Source: a phage. Taken from it: a stretch of 64,000 nt of DNA. The stretch is taken from sequence record PZ445488.1; one strand, given 5' to 3'. Each line of letters opens with the position of its first letter. Position 1 is the first letter of the stretch. The notes below the pieces were generated by a model that did not search any database, had not been told where the DNA came from, and saw nothing but the letters and a program-made list of their open reading frames with translations. The position numbers and the translations under genes are program-made. Of the stretch, positions 1-48,816 are shown piece after piece.

Positions 1-699
1 AACATAATCAAAATCACGTTCAAACACATGGGCACTTACCATGGTATGAGTATAATCACCAACTTCTACACCGCATTCGTTAGCGATATAATGAAGTAAT
101 TTTCCTTGGAGATAAAAATCCAACTGCATAACAACAGCACAGTTCTGAGAACGCATATGACAGTGGGTATAAAGCTTACCATCACGAATATAATAAGTTA
201 CTGAGTCAGTACATGGATATTCAAGTGTTTCGTCCGAATCAAGCAAAGCCTGATCAGAACTTTCTAGAATTTGGAACACAACTCTTCGAGAGTTAGGTTT
301 TTCTTTAAGTTCTTTTAGAAGAGTTGGTAATTGGGCCGCAATGCGAGGACCATAGAAAGTGTTGAAGTTCGCCGGCAAAACATCTGATTTTGGTTTAGAA
401 ATAAATTTAGCGACATTAGGATATGCCTTAAACGCTTCTTCTGCGTTGGTACCACCAGAAATCATAAACTTCCAGAAGTCTTCGGCATATTCATAAGAGA
501 TGCGGTTAATACGTGGGTCGGTCATTTTGAATGATGATGGAGTGTCAACAACTACTGTCATAGACCCAATTTCATTACAACGTCCAATACGAGAATCAGT
601 TACGAATTCCGGGTTTTCTAAAATTTCACGATTGACTGCTTTAAATGCGGTTTGAAAATCTGCGGCTTTGATATATTTCATTGTGTTATGTTTTCCCAT
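1..699 (-). CDS. 42: dNMP hydroxymethylase-family protein (thymidylate-synthase fold; gp42-like), 3' end beyond window
   Basis: Minus-strand ORF from ATG 697-699 (GAGG about 5 nt upstream) running off the window start, so absent from the ORF track. Translation MGKHNTMKYIKAADF...PCTDSVTYYIRDGKLYTHCHMRSQN...GDYTHTMVSAHVFERDFDYV matches TS/dCMP-hydroxymethylase motifs. Confidence 0.6.
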   Translation of the reverse strand, partial: MGKHNTMKYIKAADFQTAFKAVNREILENPEFVTDSRIGRCNEIGSMTVVVDTPSSFKMTDPRINRISYEYAEDFWKFMISGGTNAEEAFKAYPNVAKFISKPKSDVLPANFNTFYGPRIAAQLPTLLKELKEKPNSRRVVFQILESSDQALLDSDETLEYPCTDSVTYYIRDGKLYTHCHMRSQNCAVVMQLDFYLQGKLLHYIANECGVEVGDYTHTMVSAHVFERDFDYV

Positions 700-741
700 G
701 TTTACCTCAATACAATTTATTATATACTCAATTCATAAAGC

Positions 742-981
742 TTATTTGAATTTCTTGGCAATGTTGATATAACGTAAAGCTTCAGAATCTATACTTCCAA
801 GAACACTATGAAGAAATGCATCAGCGTAGTATTCCAATTGAACAGGTTCTTTAATCACTTTAGCCGCTTTGGTTTCAAACAGGCCCATCAGGGCCTTTTT
901 AAGAATTTGTTCGTTAGTGTTCAGTTTCATAGTCAAAATCTCTTCGTTAAGTTTATAATTAAAACTTTTTCTAGAAATCAT
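742..981 (-). CDS. hypothetical protein (79 aa)
   Basis: ORF track; lies between the gp42-like gene and the U32 gene; no motif recognised; not membrane-like, so not an obvious Imm. Confidence 0.4.
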   Translation of the reverse strand: MISRKSFNYKLNEEILTMKLNTNEQILKKALMGLFETKAAKVIKEPVQLEYYADAFLHSVLGSIDSEALRYINIAKKFK

Positions 982-2138
982 TCCGGGTACCTCAAAGCGT
1001 CATCAGAGCTAGTTATATCAATAATAGATATGGAGTTTTCTGCTAACCCGTTTTTAGATAATTGACGTTTATAATATCTTTCACAATATGTACACGTCGT
1101 CCCGCAGATTTCATTAGCACAATCGAAATCTGGATGTCTGAACCACCTTTTTTCTAAAAAGCCATCTAACAAAGAGGTTTCAATATTTACTGTATGTGAA
1201 AACTCAGTTTCGTTTTCAAGAGTGAAAATAGTCTCTAAAGGCTTCCACAGTTCTAACAAATTACCTTCAAACTTTTCAGAAGCGTATGCTTCAAGAACTT
1301 TCAAAATGTAGTCTGTGCTACCTGTACGTCCTGAAACTTTGAATTGAGTGATACCAATATCATTATAAAGTTTCAAATCTTGAGGACGAACAAAACGAGT
1401 TCTCAGCCAGTTAAATGGGTCTGTATCACGAGCTTTAATACAGTGTTGCATTGGATATCCATTTAAGGATTTAGCATCATCAGCGGTAACATCAGTACTA
1501 TGGAAAATATAGCAAGAGTCACGATAGCTACAATGTGTTGTATACCCTTTACCAGCATTAGAACAGAACTCATTTACAAGAACTTCAAATATTATATTGT
1601 TCTTATTGCAAAACTCTGCTGCACGCTTCAGGAAAGAAACTGAACGGTTCTTATGAATTCCGCAGCAGACCTTTTTGATATTATATTGGTCATGCAAGTA
1701 TTTGATTTGAGTTACAGCATCGACATGTAGAATTGTTGAAACTTCAATCTCAATATCTTTATTGACTTCACGAACAATTTCCATAACAACAGGGTTAGCG
1801 ATAGTAATACGCCATACGCCTATTGACCAAAGATACTGAACATAATCCTGAATAGCTTTCTTCTTCCACTCAACTAGTTCTCTTTTTGAACCAGGATTTA
1901 TCGTGTTGAGTGTATAGTTAAAGCAAATACCTAATTCGTTACAACGTTTAACGTAATCTTCTAACATCTTTTTGTCAACGTCAGGAAGCCTAAAATCAGG
2001 TCTGGCTGCTACAAAAGCCATTTCTCTTGTAGAGCCGTATACTTCGTTTATCAAGCTATTAGGATAAGTTTTATTGAGCTCTACGATTTTATCAAGAAGA
2101 GCTAAATCAAAATTCGTTCCGATTTTAAAAGTATTCAT
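978..2138 (-). CDS. peptidase-U32-family protein (Fe-S, TrhP/RlhA/UbiU-like putative hydroxylase fold)
   Basis: 386 aa; ATG at 2138. Segments ANPVVMEIVREV, IFEVLVNEFCSNAGKGYTTHC and GITQFKVSGRTGS parallel U32 blocks (SDPGLIMLVRE, ELEIFVHGALC.AYSGRC, GVHSLKIEGRTKS); Cys-rich C-terminus CANEICGTTCTYC. Confidence 0.6.
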   Translation of the reverse strand: MNTFKIGTNFDLALLDKIVELNKTYPNSLINEVYGSTREMAFVAARPDFRLPDVDKKMLEDYVKRCNELGICFNYTLNTINPGSKRELVEWKKKAIQDYVQYLWSIGVWRITIANPVVMEIVREVNKDIEIEVSTILHVDAVTQIKYLHDQYNIKKVCCGIHKNRSVSFLKRAAEFCNKNNIIFEVLVNEFCSNAGKGYTTHCSYRDSCYIFHSTDVTADDAKSLNGYPMQHCIKARDTDPFNWLRTRFVRPQDLKLYNDIGITQFKVSGRTGSTDYILKVLEAYASEKFEGNLLELWKPLETIFTLENETEFSHTVNIETSLLDGFLEKRWFRHPDFDCANEICGTTCTYCERYYKRQLSKNGLAENSISIIDITSSDDALRYPE

Positions 2139-2195
2139 TTTTTTTGCATCTCACGTTAATTGATGCGATGGTTTTTGCAGGTCTTACTTAAATTA

Positions 2196-2597
2196 TTATA
2201 GATTAGGTTTATATGATTTAAATGTTTCGAATTCGCCTTTATTCATAAGAGCTTTGAATTCGTCAGGACGCATAGCTTTGTCGTCGATAATCCAATCATA
2301 TACTGGTTTATGTGTTAGCAAATTATGGTACTTCAAGCCAATGTTTGCCAAGTTCTGAATCAGACTTGGGAGAATGTCAATTGCTATACGACCAGGACCT
2401 ACTGACTTCATACCACGAGCCGTGTAAAGCGTTATGGTATGCCCTGCATCATACAGGGCATTAATGGCAGACACCATTTCGACGTCTGGTTTGAAGTTCA
2501 CGTAATCACGATTGTTATTCCATTCCGTGATGCAATCATCGATATCAAAACAAAGATTAAGCATGTTTTCTACATGGTGCATTAGATTCGTTCCCAT
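2196..2597 (-). CDS. HAD-superfamily phosphatase (sugar-phosphate phosphatase candidate)
   Basis: 133 aa; HAD motif I FDIDDCIT and TARG motif; ATG at 2597 or 2582 (ATGA-type overlap with upstream stop). Confidence 0.6.
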   Translation of the reverse strand: MGTNLMHHVENMLNLCFDIDDCITEWNNNRDYVNFKPDVEMVSAINALYDAGHTITLYTARGMKSVGPGRIAIDILPSLIQNLANIGLKYHNLLTHKPVYDWIIDDKAMRPDEFKALMNKGEFETFKSYKPNL

Positions 2598-4270
2598 TGA
2601 TGAGTGATATCGCCACCGATTGGACGATAGGAAACACCAGTTTCTTTATCAGTTAGTACCCATTTACCAGGATTTTTTGTAATCAGAGTAGCCGTTACAG
2701 GTTCTGCTACGTCATAACTAATAGAGCCGTCTTGAAGTACACGGCCCATGTTATGTAATTGCTTAGTCAGAAGTTCCATACCTTTATAATATGCGGCCAC
2801 CGCTTTAAGTGGATTATTCTTGAAATAACCACCTAATGCAATCCAGATAATTGCTACTGCCAAATGATGATACTCATTAAACGAACTCATCTTTCCATAT
2901 TTGTAAACTAATGGATTGATGTTAATAGTCACATTACAAGTTGTTTCATCAATAGTAAACTGACCCCAGGTCGGATTAGCATTGAATTCATCATAACCTG
3001 AAACAGCATAAAGCACTTTAGCTTCATCGTACAATTTTGGCCCGTAAATCTTGGTTTCACCAAAATATCCACGAGGGTCGATAAACTTGACTTCACCATT
3101 ATCAGTAATCATAGTATTACTGAAGTTCGGGTCGCCGTGAATAACAGAGTACTGTCCCTGAGAACGGTTATGATAACGAATAAGATGTTCTAAAGCTTGT
3201 TTCAACATTGGCTTCAGACGTCCAATCTTAGTGTAGTTCACGTGTGTGATTTTACCAAATGAATCAATCAATGGCTGAATGCTTTCACAACGATCAATAA
3301 CTTTCGTATAGAACTCTTTAGTGAAATCACGGCGAACAGTTTCAGGACTTACAAAATAAGTGTCTGTGCTGAATTTCAGTGCATCTAAAATTGCATCAAC
3401 AATTTGTGGACGAGCAAGACTTGATTTGGATTTAATATATTCAAATGCCGGCTTACCTTTAATGCGTTCCATAATAAAGTGGCCGCCAGGATGATAACTT
3501 ACAATCCGTGGAACTGAATCTGATTTAACTTTCTTATACCAATTGACTTCATCTTTTTGAAGTGCAACGCCCTGTTCTGTTAAAGCAATCTTTGTTACCG
3601 TTTCTTCGCCAATTTCAACTGCATTAAAACTACGATTAAGTTCACGAACTTCATGAGCTTTTTCAAGTTTAGGCATATCACCTAAATCAATTAGATTCAT
3701 AAGCTCTGATTTATTGAATGCACTACCGTAAAGGAATTCTACGAAATCACGTCCTTTGCAGTATTCGTGAATTTCCTCATCAGTAGAACCCATGTAGAAT
3801 TCCCAGTCTTTGAACTGATAAATTCCTACAACATTACCACCTGTTGAACCTACGTTAGTGATATTTTCACCATCGAAATTATATCGACATTCATCACCCT
3901 TAACATAGATTGCGTTAACATTCCAAGACCATGAACCAAAGTCAGGAATAATATCACACCAGTTAACAATTACGTTATGGCCATCTAAATCTTTGTATAA
4001 TTTAGCAAGAGCATAAGCAGAACCATACGCTTCATCAACTGTACGAATAGTCACATTGAACCCTTCTTGCTCGCAATAAGCTCGAACAGTTTCAGCAAAT
4101 TTTGAATGAACTACTACAATAATTTCATCTGCGCCAAGGTCAGAATAAATTGTATACAAATTGCTCAGAATAGTGTCTTGTTTATAGTTAACAAGCACCT
4201 TAGGAATATGGTGCGTTATTGGATACAAACGAGTTGCCAGTCCAGCACCAAGAATAACAGCTTTTTTCAT
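2582..4270 (-). CDS. bifunctional sugar-1-phosphate nucleotidyltransferase (N-term, RmlA/LicC/MurU-like) and anomeric sugar kinase (C-term, APH/choline-kinase fold)
   Basis: 562 aa; N-term KAVILGAGLATRLYPIT (GxGTRLxPxT pyrophosphorylase motif); C-term VIHGDPNFSNTMI...FIDPRGYFG (APH-type catalytic loop and DFG-like motif); ATG at 4270 with GAGGA RBS. Confidence 0.7.
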   Translation of the reverse strand: MKKAVILGAGLATRLYPITHHIPKVLVNYKQDTILSNLYTIYSDLGADEIIVVVHSKFAETVRAYCEQEGFNVTIRTVDEAYGSAYALAKLYKDLDGHNVIVNWCDIIPDFGSWSWNVNAIYVKGDECRYNFDGENITNVGSTGGNVVGIYQFKDWEFYMGSTDEEIHEYCKGRDFVEFLYGSAFNKSELMNLIDLGDMPKLEKAHEVRELNRSFNAVEIGEETVTKIALTEQGVALQKDEVNWYKKVKSDSVPRIVSYHPGGHFIMERIKGKPAFEYIKSKSSLARPQIVDAILDALKFSTDTYFVSPETVRRDFTKEFYTKVIDRCESIQPLIDSFGKITHVNYTKIGRLKPMLKQALEHLIRYHNRSQGQYSVIHGDPNFSNTMITDNGEVKFIDPRGYFGETKIYGPKLYDEAKVLYAVSGYDEFNANPTWGQFTIDETTCNVTININPLVYKYGKMSSFNEYHHLAVAIIWIALGGYFKNNPLKAVAAYYKGMELLTKQLHNMGRVLQDGSISYDVAEPVTATLITKNPGKWVLTDKETGVSYRPIGGDITHQWERI

Positions 4271-4311
4271 GTTGTGGTCCTCATTGGTAAGTAGGTGTAT
4301 TGTACACTATT

Positions 4312-4455
4312 CTAGTTAAAGCATTCATACTTTGCTTGTAGTCCAATCATAATCCATCCGATTATAAGAGTCGGAATCATTACTGGAGCCGTTAAGCTCC
4401 AGTAGATAGTCATGACAAGCATCAATAGTAAAAGTCCTATTGTTATTGCTTTCAT
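4312..4455 (-). CDS. small hydrophobic protein (47 aa, 2 predicted TM segments)
   Basis: Hand-translated MKAITIGLLLMLVMTIYWSLTAPVMIPTLIIGWIMIGLQAKYECFN; its ATG overlaps the stop of the SIS gene (ATGA); below the ORF-track size cutoff. Confidence 0.35.
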   Translation of the reverse strand: MKAITIGLLLLMLVMTIYWSLTAPVMIPTLIIGWIMIGLQAKYECFN

Positions 4456-5087
4456 TGTTCGCCTCGTAACATGGCACCTAGTGCACCACCAGGGTGGAAC
4501 TTAAGGAAGTCATTAGAGGTAAATCCGCGTTCAGACGAAAGGTTGATAGCGAACGTATCGATAAGCGCTAACAACAATGTAGTGGACATTGTAGGAGCCA
4601 GAGAATTCTCATCAACCTCTACCGCGATACCGGTACAGAATGTATAATCAAAAAGAGCTTCGTATTCTTGTGGAATGTCCGGGTTACAATGCAACAGAAT
4701 CTGTTTGACATTTGGACGAATCATTTTAAGATGCTTAGCCACGCCTATCATTTCTTCAGTCTTACCAGAACGACTAATATGAATCAACACATCATTAGGC
4801 GCAATGAATCCTGCATCACCGTGAGAATAATGCCCAGTGTTCAAGTACATACTCGGGATACCGAGCGAAGCAAATGTCTCAGAAGCTTTAGTTGCAATAT
4901 TAGCATTCTTACCAACACCTGTAATAATTACTCGGCTTTCATAATTACTAAGTCCAGGGCGTCGAAGAGTTTCTAGAATAGCATTATAACGAGCAGGGTT
5001 TTGACTAATTACTTTGGCCATAGCGGCCAAAGAAGAAGCTTGTTTTATGATTGCGTCAATAGCGATAGTAATAGGAGTAGTTTTCAT
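4452..5087 (-). CDS. SIS-domain sugar-phosphate isomerase, KdsD/GutQ-type (arabinose-5-phosphate isomerase-like), no CBS domains
   Basis: 211 aa; VIITGVGKNANIATKASETFASLGIPS...HISRSGKTEE...LAPTMSTTLLLALIDTF...FHPGGALG aligns block-by-block with the KdsD SIS domain; ATG at 5087. Confidence 0.7.
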   Translation of the reverse strand: MKTTPITIAIDAIIKQASSLAAMAKVISQNPARYNAILETLRRPGLSNYESRVIITGVGKNANIATKASETFASLGIPSMYLNTGHYSHGDAGFIAPNDVLIHISRSGKTEEMIGVAKHLKMIRPNVKQILLHCNPDIPQEYEALFDYTFCTGIAVEVDENSLAPTMSTTLLLALIDTFAINLSSERGFTSNDFLKFHPGGALGAMLRGEQ

Positions 5088-5127
5088 ATTTCTCTCATTT
5101 AATTAGTTTACCGTCCATGACATTATA

Positions 5128-7839
5128 TCAAAAATCGAACATATCGAACAGAGATGCTTTCTTCTCGTAATCGAGTTTCGCTGCTGATGTGAATCCTTCA
5201 AGTGGTTTAATAAATGTCTTCTCAAGGAGAACAGTGTAGTCCATCCAATGAAGTACGTCGTCTTTAATTAAATCTGTGATTTCAGTACCAGAAGGCCATG
5301 CGATACATTTATCACCGAATGGGTTTCCATCACGTAAAGGCAGAACGTATACCTTTTCGCCTTCTACAACTTGTGGAGCATCAATATTACCTTTGATAGC
5401 TCTGTTATATGTCAGAATTCCACGAATATGGAACGGGCATTTAGGACCAGGGAATCCACCAACGTCATATTTAGCAATGTTATTCGCAGAAGATACCGAC
5501 GCGATGCTAATATAATTCAATTGACGGAATTCTTTTTCAAACTCTTTAAAATATTCTTGTAATGATTCTTCACCTTCTTGAAGCATACGACGAATACATT
5601 CTTTAAGAGCTTTCTGTACTGCTTTAGGGGTCGAAGATTTCTGTGTTTCGAGACCCATGATTTTGAGTTTAGGCTCAGCGTATCTGGTTCCTTCCATATC
5701 CCACACGTTTAATGCATAACGTTTCTTACCAGTCCAGAATCCACCAATACCTTTAGAACCGAGTGGAGGACCAGCAATAGCTTCTCGGTCCATGAACATC
5801 AAATGTTGCTTATTATTCATGTATTCACACATTTCACGGAAACCTCTATCAATAGCCGGTTCCATACGTTCACGAGCAAACTTATCTAAGAAGTCTACCC
5901 AATGGTTGGTATCACGGAATTTAGATTCACCAACCTTATCGATAATTTTATCAGCAGATACGTAAATAGAGTCTGTATCACCATAAAGAACGAAAGCTTC
6001 ACCTTCTGTACCACAAACTTCATTCAGATATTCATTAACTTTACGTTCAATCCACTGTAAAGCCATTTGCCCGAATGTTGTGATTGCAGTAGCATTACGC
6101 AAATCATAATAACGGAACCAAACGTTACCAAGTGCACCATAAAGCGAGTTGATGAGCAATTTACGGTTAATTTGTGCAGTCATACCTGCAACTTCAGTAC
6201 GTTGAGCTCTAAACAACATTTCATTAAGAGATTTAGCAGACAACTTTTTAATCTTTTCTTTAATCTCGTCAGTGAAGTCGAAACGATAATCAACATCTAA
6301 TGGTTCGTCAACAGAAAGATTAGGATTATGTAACGCCTCTTTAATTATTTCACCATTACGTTGAGCCGCAAGCATATAACCTTTATGTTCTTTACGTTGA
6401 TTAAAGACCTTAGTGATTTCAGTTGGAACTACACCATCACGGTCTTTATAATACATCATGCCGTTAGGAGAGCAACTGTACACATCTGAAGGACGTTCAG
6501 CGATTGCGTTAATATAATCATGCAATGGAGCTACTTTAAACGTTCCTGCTATTGTTTCTGGGCTAATATTCACTTGGCGAATAATACTTGGATACAGAGA
6601 TGTAAGGTCGAAACTCATTACATATTTGTATCGATTTGGAATAGGTTCCTTAACAAAAGCGCCAGGATAAGGTTGAACCGGGTGAGAACGACCTTGTGGA
6701 ATCACCTTGTTCTGCTCTTTAAGGCTATTAAAAATAATAGCATCCCATGTTTTAATTGGGCTGAACACAGATTGAATCTGTATCTTAGCATAATAACCCA
6801 TGTCCAAACTCAAGTTGATGAACTGGCGCTTAGCATCAATTTGCAATACACGATACACGTCGATAATGTTATAAGAAATATATCGTTGGTGATTGCTTTC
6901 ACGAAGCTTAGAAATAGGGCCGTCATATTTCAGTTTACCGACATTCAATTCAAATTCTGAAATGTAATCCAGAGAATACGACGGTTGGTTTGTGAAAGAG
7001 AATTTTTTGTAAAGGTCAATGTAATCAAGAACAGAAATACCGAACAATGTAATGATTTCACGAGAACCATACATGTTTTCGATAACTTTAACACGAGTTT
7101 TACGATGTGGTGATAAACGTTTCGCAGTAGATTCGCCAAAAATATTCTTGATTCGGTTATACACATATGGAATATCAAATGACTCAACGTTCCATCCGGT
7201 TAAAATGACAGGAGTTTTCTGTTGCCAGAAGTTGAGATATTCCATCAACAATTCTTTTTCGTTATCGAACGGCATATAAATGATTTTATCGATAATTTCG
7301 GATGGAACTTCATCACCACCTTGTTCTTGAAGCTTAGCCGCAATTTCGATAGACCATTCTTCTACATTACCATATGGAGAATTCAAAAGGTCGAATACGT
7401 AGAACCTGTCGTCAATTGAGTCATAATGGGTGATAGCATCAATCGGATGTTTTGCTTGTGACGGCTCAGGGAACCCATCCGGAGATGTTACTTCGATATC
7501 GAAGTTAGCCACACGAATTTTTGTATGGTCGTATTTGATTTCATAGTTATAAGTGTCAGACAAATACGACAATTTGAAATCGTCCATACCTAATGCTTCA
7601 AGACCGATATCTTCCATGCGTTTAATCCATTGGGAGGCATCACGCATATTAGCGAACAACTTACGAGTACACGGCTTACCGTAGATATCGAAATATTTCG
7701 TAGCCTGACTTTCTGGACAATGAGCAAACAATGATGGTTTATATTCTACTTCACGAGTACGTTCACGGCCATTAGAATCGATGTAACGTTCAAAAATTGA
7801 ATCACCAATCTGTTCAACCGTTAAGTAAAATTCTTTCAT
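5128..7839 (-). CDS. 43: DNA polymerase gp43 (family B, with 3'-5' exonuclease)
   Basis: 903 aa; N-terminus MKEFYLTVEQIGDSIFERYIDSNGRE and motifs YGDTDS and KILLNSLYG-like match the T4/RB69 polymerase (RB69 gp43 is 903 aa, from memory); ATG at 7839. Confidence 0.97.
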   Translation of the reverse strand: MKEFYLTVEQIGDSIFERYIDSNGRERTREVEYKPSLFAHCPESQATKYFDIYGKPCTRKLFANMRDASQWIKRMEDIGLEALGMDDFKLSYLSDTYNYEIKYDHTKIRVANFDIEVTSPDGFPEPSQAKHPIDAITHYDSIDDRFYVFDLLNSPYGNVEEWSIEIAAKLQEQGGDEVPSEIIDKIIYMPFDNEKELLMEYLNFWQQKTPVILTGWNVESFDIPYVYNRIKNIFGESTAKRLSPHRKTRVKVIENMYGSREIITLFGISVLDYIDLYKKFSFTNQPSYSLDYISEFELNVGKLKYDGPISKLRESNHQRYISYNIIDVYRVLQIDAKRQFINLSLDMGYYAKIQIQSVFSPIKTWDAIIFNSLKEQNKVIPQGRSHPVQPYPGAFVKEPIPNRYKYVMSFDLTSLYPSIIRQVNISPETIAGTFKVAPLHDYINAIAERPSDVYSCSPNGMMYYKDRDGVVPTEITKVFNQRKEHKGYMLAAQRNGEIIKEALHNPNLSVDEPLDVDYRFDFTDEIKEKIKKLSAKSLNEMLFRAQRTEVAGMTAQINRKLLINSLYGALGNVWFRYYDLRNATAITTFGQMALQWIERKVNEYLNEVCGTEGEAFVLYGDTDSIYVSADKIIDKVGESKFRDTNHWVDFLDKFARERMEPAIDRGFREMCEYMNNKQHLMFMDREAIAGPPLGSKGIGGFWTGKKRYALNVWDMEGTRYAEPKLKIMGLETQKSSTPKAVQKALKECIRRMLQEGEESLQEYFKEFEKEFRQLNYISIASVSSANNIAKYDVGGFPGPKCPFHIRGILTYNRAIKGNIDAPQVVEGEKVYVLPLRDGNPFGDKCIAWPSGTEITDLIKDDVLHWMDYTVLLEKTFIKPLEGFTSAAKLDYEKKASLFDMFDF

Positions 7840-19458: not shown

Positions 19459-19929
19459 TTAATCATGTTTCCACACCCCATCGGTATTTGACCAAAGTCG
19501 CTGATTATCTGATCCTCGCCACAGCTTTTTGGTCGGAAGATTTTTCTCATACTTCCCATCAATAATAACATCAACATATTTAAGCATTTCTAGCTGTTTA
19601 ATATCTTCAAACTTATATCCTGTCCACAACCAAATGCTTTTATTGGGATAAAGATTTTTTACTGTTTGAACAATGTAATGAATAACATCTCGGTTATCAG
19701 GATAGAGAGGGTCTCCTCCGGTTATAGTTAATCCTTCTATATAATCATTATTCAAACATTCAATTAATTGTTCTAGTGTTTCACCAGTGAATGGAATACC
19801 ATTTCTAGCGTTCCATGTTGATTTATTATAACACCCTTCGCATTTATGCAAACAACCTGTAACGAAAAGAACGACCCTACAACCAGGGCCATTCACAAAA
19901 TCGCAAGGATAAAATCTATCATAATTCAT
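19459..19929 (-). CDS. nrdG: anaerobic ribonucleotide reductase activating protein NrdG (radical SAM)
   Basis: 156 aa; Cys-rich N-terminus (CDFVNGPGCR, CLHKCEGC); same length as T4 NrdG. Confidence 0.9.
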   Translation of the reverse strand: MNYDRFYPCDFVNGPGCRVVLFVTGCLHKCEGCYNKSTWNARNGIPFTGETLEQLIECLNNDYIEGLTITGGDPLYPDNRDVIHYIVQTVKNLYPNKSIWLWTGYKFEDIKQLEMLKYVDVIIDGKYEKNLPTKKLWRGSDNQRLWSNTDGVWKHD

Positions 19930-21743
19930 TGGTGTTTAACCCTATGCATGATTTCTTTATTTTTACCGAGATTAAATCCGCGTTCGTTCGGATTTCCAAG
20001 ATAACCGCATGTTCTTCTTATGGTGTTCATCTTTTTAGGATCAGTTTCTCCACAAACTGAACAAACAAATCCGTTTTCAGTAGGAGTCATTTCATGGGTA
20101 CTTCCACACGTAAAACATTTATCTACTGGCATATTAACACCAAAATAATCTAAATGTTGTGCAGCATAATCCCACACAGCCTCAAGACCTTTTAGGTTAT
20201 TTTTCATATCAGGAAGTTCAACATAAGAAATGTGACCACCTGTCGCAATGAAATGATATGGCGCTTCACGAGAAATCTTTTCAAACGGAGTAATATTTTC
20301 TTCTACTGAAACATGGAAACTATTAGTGTACCAGCCTTTATCAGTGACATCCTTTACACTTCCATATTTTTCTGTATCAAGTTTACAGAAACGATAACAC
20401 AAGTTTTCAGCAGGAGTAGAATATAAACTAAAAGCAAATCCAGTTCTTTCAGTCCACTGTTTAAGATGAGCATTCATTTTAGTTAAAATTTCTTGTCCAA
20501 TATCACGACCAACAAGAATATTCAATTCATGAATACCAATATATCCTAAAGACACTGAACTTCTACCGTTTTTAAATAACTCAATTATATCATCGTCGGG
20601 TTTAAGACGAACACCAAATGCACCTTCTTGGTAAAGAATAGGAGCAACAGTAGCTTTAACTCCTTTTAAGGAACTAATTCTACACATCAAGGCTTCAAAG
20701 CACAGATCCATTCGTTCATTAAATAACTCAACAAATTTCTGTTCATTGAACTGTGTTCCAATATAAGAATCTAACGCGATGCGAGGAAGATTCAGTGTTA
20801 CAACACCGAGATTATTACGTCCATCAAGAATTTCATTACCAGTCGAATCTTTCCATACACTCAAGAAACTACGGCAGCCCATTGGAGAAACAGGAATAGA
20901 TGAGCCGGTGATAGCTTTATTATTCTTAACAGAAATAATGTCAGGATACATTCTTTTGCTTGCACACTCTAGAGCGAGTTGCTTAATATCATAGTTCGGA
21001 TCGTCTTTATAAAGATTAACACCCTCTTCGACAAACATAACAAGTTTAGGGAAAATAGGAGTTATTCCATCACGACCAAGACCTTTAATCCGATTTTTCA
21101 GAATTGCTTTCTGAATCATTCGTTCGGTCCAATCAGTTCCAGTACCAAATGTAATTGTTACAAAAGGCGTTTGCCCGTTTGAACTAAAAAGAGTATTTAC
21201 CTCATACTCATAAGCTTGAAATGCGTCATATACATCTTTTTCTGTTTTAGATTGAGCATAATTCAGAATGTCTGGTATTTGCCATTTTTCTGCATCTTCA
21301 ACATGTTTAGCGTATGTACGTTTAACATAAGGAGAAAGAACTTTATCGACATTCGCAAATGTAGTTCCGCCGTACTGATGTGAAGCAACTTGTGCAGTAA
21401 TTTGTGCCATAATTGCAGTAGCAACACCAATCGATTTAGGCGTTTCAATTTGAGCATTGCCCAATTTAAATCCGTTCTCAAGCATCCCCTTTAAATCGAC
21501 TAAACAGCAATTGGTAAACGGAAGAGCAGGAGAATAATCAATATCATGCATGTGGATAATTCCACTTTCATGCGCATTCATAATAAAAGACGGGACCATA
21601 TTTTTGGCAATGTGCTTAGACACAATACCAGCCATAAGGTCCCGTTGAGTTGGAAAAACACGAGAATCTTTATTAGCATTCTCGTTCAAAAGATCTTTAT
21701 TAGTTTTATAAATTAATCCTTCAATTTCTTTTTCAATTTTCAT
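19926..21743 (-). CDS. nrdD: anaerobic ribonucleoside-triphosphate reductase NrdD
   Basis: 605 aa; C-terminal Cys cluster (CFTCGSTHE...CSVCG) and glycyl-radical motif RTCGYLG. Confidence 0.95.
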   Translation of the reverse strand: MKIEKEIEGLIYKTNKDLLNENANKDSRVFPTQRDLMAGIVSKHIAKNMVPSFIMNAHESGIIHMHDIDYSPALPFTNCCLVDLKGMLENGFKLGNAQIETPKSIGVATAIMAQITAQVASHQYGGTTFANVDKVLSPYVKRTYAKHVEDAEKWQIPDILNYAQSKTEKDVYDAFQAYEYEVNTLFSSNGQTPFVTITFGTGTDWTERMIQKAILKNRIKGLGRDGITPIFPKLVMFVEEGVNLYKDDPNYDIKQLALECASKRMYPDIISVKNNKAITGSSIPVSPMGCRSFLSVWKDSTGNEILDGRNNLGVVTLNLPRIALDSYIGTQFNEQKFVELFNERMDLCFEALMCRISSLKGVKATVAPILYQEGAFGVRLKPDDDIIELFKNGRSSVSLGYIGIHELNILVGRDIGQEILTKMNAHLKQWTERTGFAFSLYSTPAENLCYRFCKLDTEKYGSVKDVTDKGWYTNSFHVSVEENITPFEKISREAPYHFIATGGHISYVELPDMKNNLKGLEAVWDYAAQHLDYFGVNMPVDKCFTCGSTHEMTPTENGFVCSVCGETDPKKMNTIRRTCGYLGNPNERGFNLGKNKEIMHRVKHQ

Positions 21744-48661: not shown

Positions 48662-48738
<77 letters not shown>

Positions 48739-48741
48739 AAT

Positions 48742-48816
48742 TGGTGACCCTGGCTGGTTTCGATCCAGCTACCTATCAGTTATGAGCTGACAGCTCTCCC
48801 ATTGAGCTACAGGGCC
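48742..48816 (-). tRNA. tRNA with anticodon CAU (Met, or Ile after lysidine modification)
   Basis: Hand-folded: acceptor GGCCCTG/CAGGGTC, D-arm GCTC-AATGGGA-GAGC, anticodon loop CTCATAA, T-arm GCTGG-ATCGAAA-CCAGC, encoded CCA; 3 nt from tRNA-Arg. Confidence 0.75.

Follow-up and report, generated by a model that had tools for sequence, protein, structure and literature searches.

Introduction

How can a phage that builds hydroxylated cytosine into its DNA make this base when oxygen is lacking? The question is raised by the DNA-modification locus of a 64-kb stretch of phage DNA (sequence record PZ445488.1, 64,000 nucleotides; hereafter the window), in which a gene for a 386-aa protein of the U32 family stands among the genes for arabinosyl-5-hydroxycytosine. 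The source phage is a Mosigvirus of the RB69 type, with 96.7% identity to RB69 and 97.2% to phage HY126 over the 4.5 kb that surround the U32 gene. RB69-like phages infect gut bacteria, which live largely without O2, and with the anaerobic ribonucleotide reductase NrdD and NrdG encoded in the window (Table 1) the phage has the tools for dNTP synthesis and replication under anoxia. We consider it slightly more likely than not that the U32 gene provides an O2-independent, prephenate-dependent route to C5 hydroxylation, the same step that is carried out by the ThyA-type synthase encoded nearby.

The base of RB69 DNA is arabinosylated 5-hydroxycytosine (5hoC), not hydroxymethylcytosine (hmC) (Lee et al., NAR 2026, PMC13326640). 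In that work the ThyA homolog gp48 was found to bind flavin and to make 5-hydroxy-dCMP, 18O2 labelling showed that the oxygen atom derives from O2, and He et al. 2026 was cited for confirmation in vitro, while UDP-arabinose synthesis is covered by an isomerase, a bifunctional enzyme and a phosphatase (PMC13326640). Table 1 of the same paper lists the U32 gene, untested, as "sugar or heterocycle reductase", and its Discussion mentions the tRNA and rRNA pyrimidine-hydroxylation pathways and draws no connection to gp50 (PMC13326640). The U32 gene goes unmentioned in Thomas et al. 2018 and in the Thanatos paper. Public records of RB69-like phages name it "peptidase family U32", "putative protease" or "collagenase-like protease", and its U32 identity is already public. 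No accessible paper was found in which U32, chorismate mutase and phage DNA modification are brought together; a back-up role independent of O2, a module of U32 and chorismate mutase, and a U32 enzyme in place of the ThyA-type synthase in uncultured phages all appear to be new in this literature.

Family assignment and conserved residues

The motifs quoted in a first-pass annotation of this DNA (ANPVVMEIVRE, FEVLVNEFCSNAGKGY..C and FKVSGRTGS) are all present in the 386-aa translation, as is the Cys-rich tail that it had described (CANEICGTTCTYC). Its assignment of the protein to the U32 family was borne out. Peptidase_U32 (PF01136) matched aa 94-286 with 42.2 bits against a gathering threshold (GA) of 22.4 (E 7.3e-11), UbiV for comparison scores 38.3 bits on this profile, and the protein has the TIM-barrel-like fold of U32 enzymes. 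The phage family phrog_5757 was matched along the whole length. The finer label TrhP/RlhA/UbiU-like had to be given up. The window protein is 17-20% identical to the E. coli U32 enzymes and lacks the C-terminal domains of TrhP and RlhA: it matched neither the TrhP equivalog NF011996 nor the C-terminal PF16325, which E. coli TrhP has, and the DUF3656 domain (PF12392) found in E. coli RlhA was not found in it. Its top NCBIfam match was UbiU (NF047963) with 18.5 bits (E 9e-4), and the cutoff of that profile is 440. Judged by these profiles, the window protein is to be placed in none of the TrhP, RlhA and UbiU subfamilies. It belongs to a distinct U32 subfamily with members of about 360 aa, of which 481 cluster representatives were collected at E<=1e-30. 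Searches of PDB sequences with the protein and with the family profile returned spurious matches only, and the sole addition from a BFVD search was a split U32 ortholog in phage OLB35. Purifying selection on the gene is strong, with a ratio of nonsynonymous to synonymous substitution rates (dN/dS) of 0.058 in comparison with RB69 and of about 0.07 in comparison with the orthologs from Shigella and Yersinia phages.

UbiU, UbiV, TrhP and RlhA from the E. coli K-12 record were aligned with the window protein and 32 relatives. C203, C209 and C233 are invariant (100% of 33 family members) and align with C169/C176/C193 of UbiU, C170/C177/C193 of TrhP and C169/C176/C192 of RlhA. The [4Fe-4S] ligands of UbiU were assigned experimentally, and three of them correspond to C203, C209 and C233 (Pelosi et al. 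2019, PMC6747719). The canonical four-Cys motif of U32 Fe-S hydroxylases is CX6CX15CX3/4C or variants of it, and the fourth ligand shifts within the family, being C232 in UbiU and C39 in UbiV (PMC6747719). In the phage subfamily the invariant C158, C177 and C192 are candidate fourth ligands. A further motif, C340-X4-C345-X3-C349-X2-C352, has no counterpart in UbiU or TrhP; each of its cysteines is 100% conserved in 33 and also in 46 family members, and this pattern suggests that the motif may form a second metal or Fe-S site. Eight other residues (N78, G107, S134, E185, K267, G270, R271 and Y277) are common to the family and to three or all four of the E. coli U32 enzymes; N78, E185, K267, G270, R271 and Y277 of the window protein recur in UbiU, TrhP and RlhA. 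The Fe-S character of the window protein is plausible on the strength of these alignments.

Linkage with chorismate mutase and DAHP synthase

Chorismate mutase yields prephenate, and DAHP synthase is the entry enzyme of the shikimate pathway. Both are encoded next to U32 genes in other phages. In five sister lineages an AroQ chorismate mutase gene follows a U32 ortholog that shares 83-87% identity with the window protein, and in three of the five (Entb_45, LC53 and Thanatos-1) the two genes overlap by 4 nt. The gene overlapping the U32 stop codon in Enterobacter phage Entb_45 is annotated as "chorismate mutase" and reached 40.9 bits on Pfam CM_2 (GA 27). The proteins encoded in the same slot by Serratia phage LC53, Shewanella phage Thanatos-1, Shigella phage SdyM_006 and Yersinia phage TG1 also exceed this threshold, the five scores ranging from 34.7 to 44.6 bits. 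When they were aligned with E. coli PheA and TyrA, the EcCM residues R11, R28, K39, E52, S84 and Q88 were kept in all five. The chorismate mutase gene was found in 56 phage records as operon partner of the U32 ortholog. In Thanatos-1 the pair is still adjacent and overlapping despite a rearranged cluster, and within Kanagawavirus the two genes go together, both being present in Entb_45 and both absent from ZX14. Independently of this, the gene that follows U32 in one uncultured phage (L005) codes for a DAHP synthase (237 bits). There the DAHP synthase and an NAD-dependent sugar epimerase come directly after U32 (L005:11145-12804), and a shikimate entry enzyme borne by a phage is unusual.

Prephenate is needed by TrhP and RlhA and is the demonstrated oxygen donor for UbiU/V, and the chorismate mutase domain of PheA alone restores these activities. 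The demand of DNA modification would be large: about 62,000 cytosines per genome and a burst of 100 give about 6e6 hydroxylations per cell, or about 10 mM donor. This scale speaks for a bulk substrate and explains a dedicated prephenate supply, by phage chorismate mutase and DAHP synthase, for DNA and not for tRNA.

The chorismate mutase slot of the sister genera is occupied in the window by a 79-aa ORF (open reading frame) that is not detectably related to the mutase. It was considered as a cryptic chorismate mutase and rejected, as there was no Pfam or NCBIfam match, BLASTP against the Entb_45 mutase was empty and hhalign gave a probability of 0.2%. This ORF is less constrained (dN/dS about 0.2), is frameshifted in HY126 and has an AlphaFold2 model with a pLDDT of 65; some metagenomic copies are shortened to 47-58 aa.

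Loci of uncultured phages without a nearby ThyA-type synthase

About 250 metagenomic proteins of about 360 aa are 48-58% identical to the U32 protein of the window, and eight of their loci were read 10 kb to either side of U32. Seven are phage-like, with genes for Pol III alpha, single-stranded DNA-binding protein (SSB), primase and RecA, and one is bacterial-looking. The neighbors of U32 in the phage-like loci include a TMK-like kinase, dCMP deaminase, dUTPase/DCD, UDG, NUDIX and ThyX. In four loci a protein of about 330 aa (phrog_3891) overlaps or abuts the U32 start, and it is a homolog of the first DNA arabinosyltransferase (GT1) of RB69 and HY126 (hhalign probability 98.9%, E 2e-17 over 256 columns); its profile had no match among PDB sequences. 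Five of the seven phage loci carry a GT1 homolog (E 1e-18 to 1e-30 with a hidden Markov model, HMM) together with a gp45-type kinase beside U32, and no ThyA-type synthase was found by HMM within the 10 kb on either side in any of the seven, even at E<=1e-2. The overall gene pattern is thus a ThyA-type gene, a U32 gene or both, with GT1 and the kinase, which is the pattern expected if U32 yields the same hydroxylated nucleotide.

Several of these loci have features of their own. In one of them (L022:7777-16179) the U32 gene overlaps a gene for a TAGT-family glycosyltransferase (33.9 bits, GA 27.5), and a second glycosyltransferase, a dUTPase/dCTP-deaminase-fold gene and a UDP-galactopyranose mutase are also near; the locus has the look of a new cluster for glycosyl-hydroxypyrimidine modification of DNA that lacks a ThyA-type synthase. 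A radical SAM/SPASM gene lies within a few genes of U32 in four independent metagenomic loci (L002:1314-2249, L003:14160-15185, L023:7980-9011 and L024:7972-9000), and this recurrent gene could be part of the U32 system, e.g. as an oxidant or electron route, or serve a separate modification. On the bacterial-looking contig (L003:9185-17428, and L004) two U32 paralogs accompany NT5C, a PnuC-like transporter, a deoxynucleoside kinase, an AlaX-like protein, a radical SAM protein and a nucleoside deoxyribosyltransferase, and the L003 contig may encode a cellular modified-nucleoside pathway. The same GT1 HMM also matches galactosyltransferase-1 (gp215) of Rhizobium phage RL38J1 (L028:10708-11739, E 2.7e-15). 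The family therefore apparently adds the first sugar to 5hoC, whichever sugar this is, and its specificity seems to lie in the 5-hydroxypyrimidine acceptor and not in the sugar.

Distribution among phages

The U32 gene was found by tblastn in 222 records of the phage database, all of them at least 80% identical and all in 5hoC-type clusters. Mosigvirus-like phages account for 154 records, and the remaining 68 are from phages that infect Klebsiella, Serratia, Proteus, Yersinia, Enterobacter, Providencia, Edwardsiella, Pectobacterium, Shewanella and others. The gene is missing from the hmC-type T-even phages, in agreement with the first-pass annotation, according to which a U32 homolog is not known from T4. 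Homologs of the synthase are more widespread (374 phage records, including 57 of Acinetobacter and 20 of Rhizobium phages). At the loci inspected by HMM, U32 is present in phages of Escherichia, Enterobacter, Serratia, Shigella, Yersinia and Shewanella, and neither U32 nor chorismate mutase was found at five inspected loci, those of the Acinetobacter phages Maestro, Acj9 and DLP1, Pseudomonas phage PspYZU05 and Rhizobium phage RL38J1. The statement that holds is one-way only: U32 was never found in inspected phages of aerobic hosts. This phyletic pattern indicates that the module is accessory and dispensable for the core pathway, and it is known so far only from phages of facultative anaerobes.

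Proposed pathway and its alternatives

DLP3 and Maestro, which have no U32 gene, make the same arabinosyl-5hoC as RB69 (PMC13326640). This lends no support to the "extra, undescribed chemical step" that had been suggested for the U32 protein, and an alternative O2-independent route to the known C5 hydroxylation is likelier than an added step. In the proposed pathway the iron-sulfur U32 enzyme would hydroxylate the pyrimidine C5 of a DNA precursor, most probably converting dCMP to 5-hydroxy-dCMP. In this way the hydroxyl group that DNA arabinosylation needs as acceptor would be provided without O2, a condition in which the neighboring flavin- and O2-dependent ThyA-type synthase could not work. 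The substrate ring would lose two electrons via the Fe-S cluster or clusters, as proposed for UbiUV; prephenate would then decarboxylate and give its hydroxyl, leaving the hydroxylated base and phenylpyruvate. The phage would hold an aerobic and an anaerobic enzyme for one step, like TrhO/TrhP and UbiIHF/UbiUV of its host. The characterized U32 members are all linked to O2-independent hydroxylation, and two of the three systems act on pyrimidine C5. A mononucleotide substrate is favored because T-even-type phages destroy dCTP, so that an enzyme acting on the polymer could not rescue anoxic replication. We infer the Fe-S binding, the prephenate use, the substrate and the anaerobic role of the U32 protein alike.

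A wider proposal, more tentative and in our view possible rather than probable, is that the U32 enzymes form a second, O2-independent class of viral 5-hydroxypyrimidine deoxynucleotide synthases. For T-even-like phages of enterobacteria they would serve as a conditional reserve behind the flavin- and O2-dependent ThyA-type synthase; many uncultured Pol III-alpha phages would have no other hydroxylase, and the DNA of these phages would carry glycosylated 5-hydroxypyrimidines. Prephenate would be used stoichiometrically, at millions of molecules per infected cell, and this would explain the phage chorismate mutase and DAHP synthase.

Several points weigh against O2-independent synthesis of 5-hydroxy-dCMP by the U32 protein. 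A chorismate mutase is encoded nowhere in the 64-kb window, and Mosigviruses are generally without one, so the prephenate link rests on the orthologs and the Mosigviruses would depend on host PheA and TyrA for prephenate. The position of the fourth canonical Cys, as in TrhP and RlhA, is Thr247 in the window protein. U32 enzymes have never been reconstituted in vitro, and neither DNA nor a free nucleotide is an established substrate of any of them. The module is missing from E. coli Dhakavirus IME08 and Enterobacter Kanagawavirus ZX14, whose hosts are nonetheless facultative anaerobes; these two phages refute the strict rule that such a host implies the presence of U32. Phylogeny confounds the host correlation: the phages of Acinetobacter form a subfamily of their own, and a single acquisition could account for the module. 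With respect to the uncultured phages, a ThyA-type gene could lie beyond the 10 kb read on either side, and the dCMP deaminase beside U32 in some loci could mean that uracil rather than cytosine is the substrate.

Among the other explanations, an RNA hydroxylase like TrhP or RlhA, which would keep ho5U34/cmo5U in tRNA or ho5C2501 in 23S rRNA during infection, survives best, and it is nevertheless unlikely. The characterized pyrimidine-hydroxylating U32 enzymes all act on RNA and need prephenate, the phage encodes tRNAs, and the chorismate mutase of the sister phages could provide prephenate for the RNA step (and for CmoA). However, the window protein is without the C-terminal, RNA-binding domains PF16325 (TrhP) and PF12392 (RlhA) and does not match the NCBIfam TrhP equivalog, and the phage tRNAs, Arg(UCU) and Met(CAU), fall outside the NYN boxes served by TrhP. 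The confinement of the gene to 5hoC-type DNA-modification clusters, never in hmC T-even phages, and the DNA glycosyltransferase, kinase and polymerase genes that neighbor its homologs also speak against an RNA target, for which bulk prephenate would be needless.

It is quite improbable that the protein works on the sugar or on another heterocycle and adds or tailors something beyond arabinosyl-5hoC. Its gene comes directly after the sugar-nucleotide cassette, the TIM-barrel fold is common among sugar enzymes, epimerase-like genes are nearby in two uncultured phages (L005 and L006), and the label "sugar or heterocycle reductase" (PMC13326640) points the same way. Against this, DLP3 and Maestro make the same base without the gene, the UDP-arabinose route is already covered by three enzymes, and both the linkage with chorismate mutase or DAHP synthase and the conserved Fe-S cysteines are left unexplained. 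Little probability is likewise given to hydroxylation of cytosine after its incorporation, on the DNA polymer, e.g. at residual unmodified C. The known relatives RlhA and TrhP do act on polymers, and in uncultured phages U32 adjoins genes for Pol III alpha, RecA and UDG-like proteins; but dCTPase, whose gene is present in relatives, removes dCTP and leaves no C-type dNTP for anoxic polymerization, and the contexts with TMK-like kinase, dCMP deaminase, NT5C and deoxynucleoside kinase (dNK) suggest mononucleotides or nucleosides.

It is very unlikely that the protein hydroxylates quinones like UbiU/UbiV, or that it serves host metabolism in some other way and so keeps up energy metabolism in anoxic infection: the weak top NCBIfam match is UbiU and the family chemistry is common to UbiU/V, but that match is far below its cutoff, the window is without a second U32 subunit or UbiT, and the gene is strictly within DNA-modification clusters. 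A true peptidase or collagenase, as the database names "peptidase U32" and "collagenase-like protease" have it, is hardly credible, since the U32 family is now viewed as Fe-S hydroxylases and a proteolytic role fits none of the conserved gene contexts.

Locus organization

On the minus strand the order is gp43 DNA polymerase, isomerase, bifunctional enzyme, HAD phosphatase, U32, 79-aa ORF and ThyA-family gene (Table 1). The first-pass annotation had placed U32 between a sugar-nucleotide cassette and a dCMP-hydroxymethylase-like gene. The cassette is there (2196..5087, minus strand); the gene on the other side is the published 5-hydroxy-dCMP synthase, not a dCMP hydroxymethylase (PMC13326640), and it is no direct neighbor, as the 79-aa ORF stands between the two. 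The synthase gene matches an HMM of gp48 orthologs at E 1.4e-142, and the start of the window removes the last few C-terminal residues. The synthase, isomerase, kinase/nucleotidyltransferase and HAD phosphatase of the arabinosyl-5hoC cluster (RB69/HY126 type) are all in the window, and its GT1 and kinase lie outside, past the window start. The HAD phosphatase matches a capsule biosynthesis phosphatase profile (TIGR01689), and the role of the AfhF-type enzyme is to convert arabinose-1,5-bisphosphate to arabinose-1-phosphate (PMC13326640). The bifunctional protein has an NTP_transferase profile match in its N-terminal part and an APH/choline-kinase-like match in its C-terminal part. Its gene is a single intact ORF here and is divided into RB69p052 and RB69p053 in the RB69 reference record, which fits the published view that the RB69 split is a sequencing error.

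In the stretch 2139..2222 (minus strand), the gap of 57 nt 5' of the U32 start holds a short GCATC...GATGC inverted repeat and is preceded by a sigma-70-like TTTAAA-16-TATAAT (2222..2195). A scan of 600..5300 for promoters and terminators gave no excess over shuffled sequence, and promoter-like sites in this region were no commoner than in the shuffles. The tRNA genes of the window are two only.

Table 1. Features of the window considered in this study.
Feature	Position	Strand	Remarks
ThyA-family 5-hydroxy-dCMP synthase	1..699	-	RB69 gp48 ortholog; ATG at 699..697
79-aa ORF	742..981	-	RB69p049 ortholog; start overlaps the U32 stop by 4 nt
U32-family protein, 386 aa	978..2138	-	ATG start; ortholog of RB69p050 / HY126 XAN60477
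Codons of C340-X4-C345-X3-C349-X2-C352	1083..1121	-	C-terminal motif; family-specific
Codons of C203, C209, C233	1440..1532	-	putative [4Fe-4S] ligands 1-3; spacing CX5CX23C
HAD-type phosphatase	2196..2597	-	RB69 gp51 / HY126 AfhF ortholog; TIGR01689 E 3.7e-13; phrog_1238
Bifunctional sugar-1-phosphate nucleotidyltransferase / sugar kinase, 562 aa	2582..4270	-	RB69 gp52:53 / AfhE ortholog; phrog_4098; PMC13326640
SIS-domain arabinose-5-phosphate isomerase	4452..5087	-	RB69 gp55 ortholog; KpsF/GutQ TIGR00393 E 2e-32; phrog_5670
NrdG	19459..19929	-	anaerobic ribonucleotide reductase
NrdD	19926..21743	-	anaerobic ribonucleotide reductase; 571 bits
tRNA genes	48662..48816	-	Arg(UCU) and Met(CAU)

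Discussion

The biosynthesis of arabinosyl-5hoC was worked out in 2025-26 with an O2-requiring hydroxylase only. An O2-independent route, if it exists, would explain how fully modified DNA is replicated in the gut, and it would bear on phage therapy and on defence-evasion studies that are done in air alone. Prephenate-dependent hydroxylation would extend from RNA and quinones to DNA precursors, and the shikimate pathway would be tied to DNA hypermodification for the first time. The U32 enzymes would gain their first free-nucleotide substrate, a soluble small molecule with which their chemistry might for the first time be reconstituted in vitro. The phage chorismate mutase and DAHP synthase would gain a function, and new hypermodified bases would be predicted in many uncultured phages. 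If the proposal is wrong, a strongly conserved orphan gene is left in a well-studied locus.

The closest system in the phage itself is the gp48-type synthase. RB69 gp48, DLP3 gp80 and the HY126 homolog make the product that is proposed for U32, 5-hydroxy-dCMP, and belong to the same gene cluster as U32, and beside the same glycosyltransferase and kinase families of uncultured phages this synthase is seemingly replaced by U32. The fold and the cofactors are unrelated and the oxygen comes from O2; the activity of gp48 is proven, whereas the role of U32 is the one proposed here. The T4-type NrdAB and NrdDG set a precedent for separate aerobic and anaerobic phage enzymes for one nucleotide step, but they differ in chemistry and families and the comparison is an analogy only.

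Among cellular U32 proteins, Mk0906 of Methanopyrus kandleri (PDB 5d88, 247 aa) is 14% identical to the window protein and lacks the Cys-rich C-terminal extension. The Fe-S ligands of UbiU/UbiV are experimentally proven and align with the window protein, in UbiU at three of the four cysteines, and the PF01136 score of UbiV (38 bits) is close to that of the window protein. These proteins use prephenate as oxygen donor and back up the flavin/O2 enzymes UbiI/H/F under anoxia. They form a heterodimer that requires the lipid-binding UbiT, whereas the window has one U32 gene; by analogy, the C-terminal four-Cys motif of the phage protein might stand in for the cluster of the second subunit. RlhA (YdcP), which is required for ho5C2501 of 23S rRNA and needs prephenate and iron, is the sole known U32-protein system that makes 5-hydroxycytosine, and its Cys169, Cys176 and Cys192 align with C203, C209 and C233 of the window protein. 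On the other hand, RlhA is a ribosome-binding protein of 653 aa with a DUF3656 domain, and the window protein has 386 aa and no such domain.

TrhP (YegQ) differs from the phage protein in several respects: the two are about 20% identical and their relation is detectable by profile only, the phage protein lacks PF16325, presumably has its fourth Cys elsewhere and carries an extra C-terminal four-Cys motif, and it is encoded by a virus, with a deoxynucleotide for DNA and not a tRNA as its presumed substrate. Both have the U32 domain, three aligned Fe-S cysteines and the conserved E, KxxGR and Y. TrhP carries out the prephenate-dependent C5 hydroxylation of U34 in tRNA, a pyrimidine C5 target like the one proposed for the phage enzyme. 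It is paired with the O2-dependent TrhO, and this is the same two-route logic for one hydroxylation that we propose for the phage.

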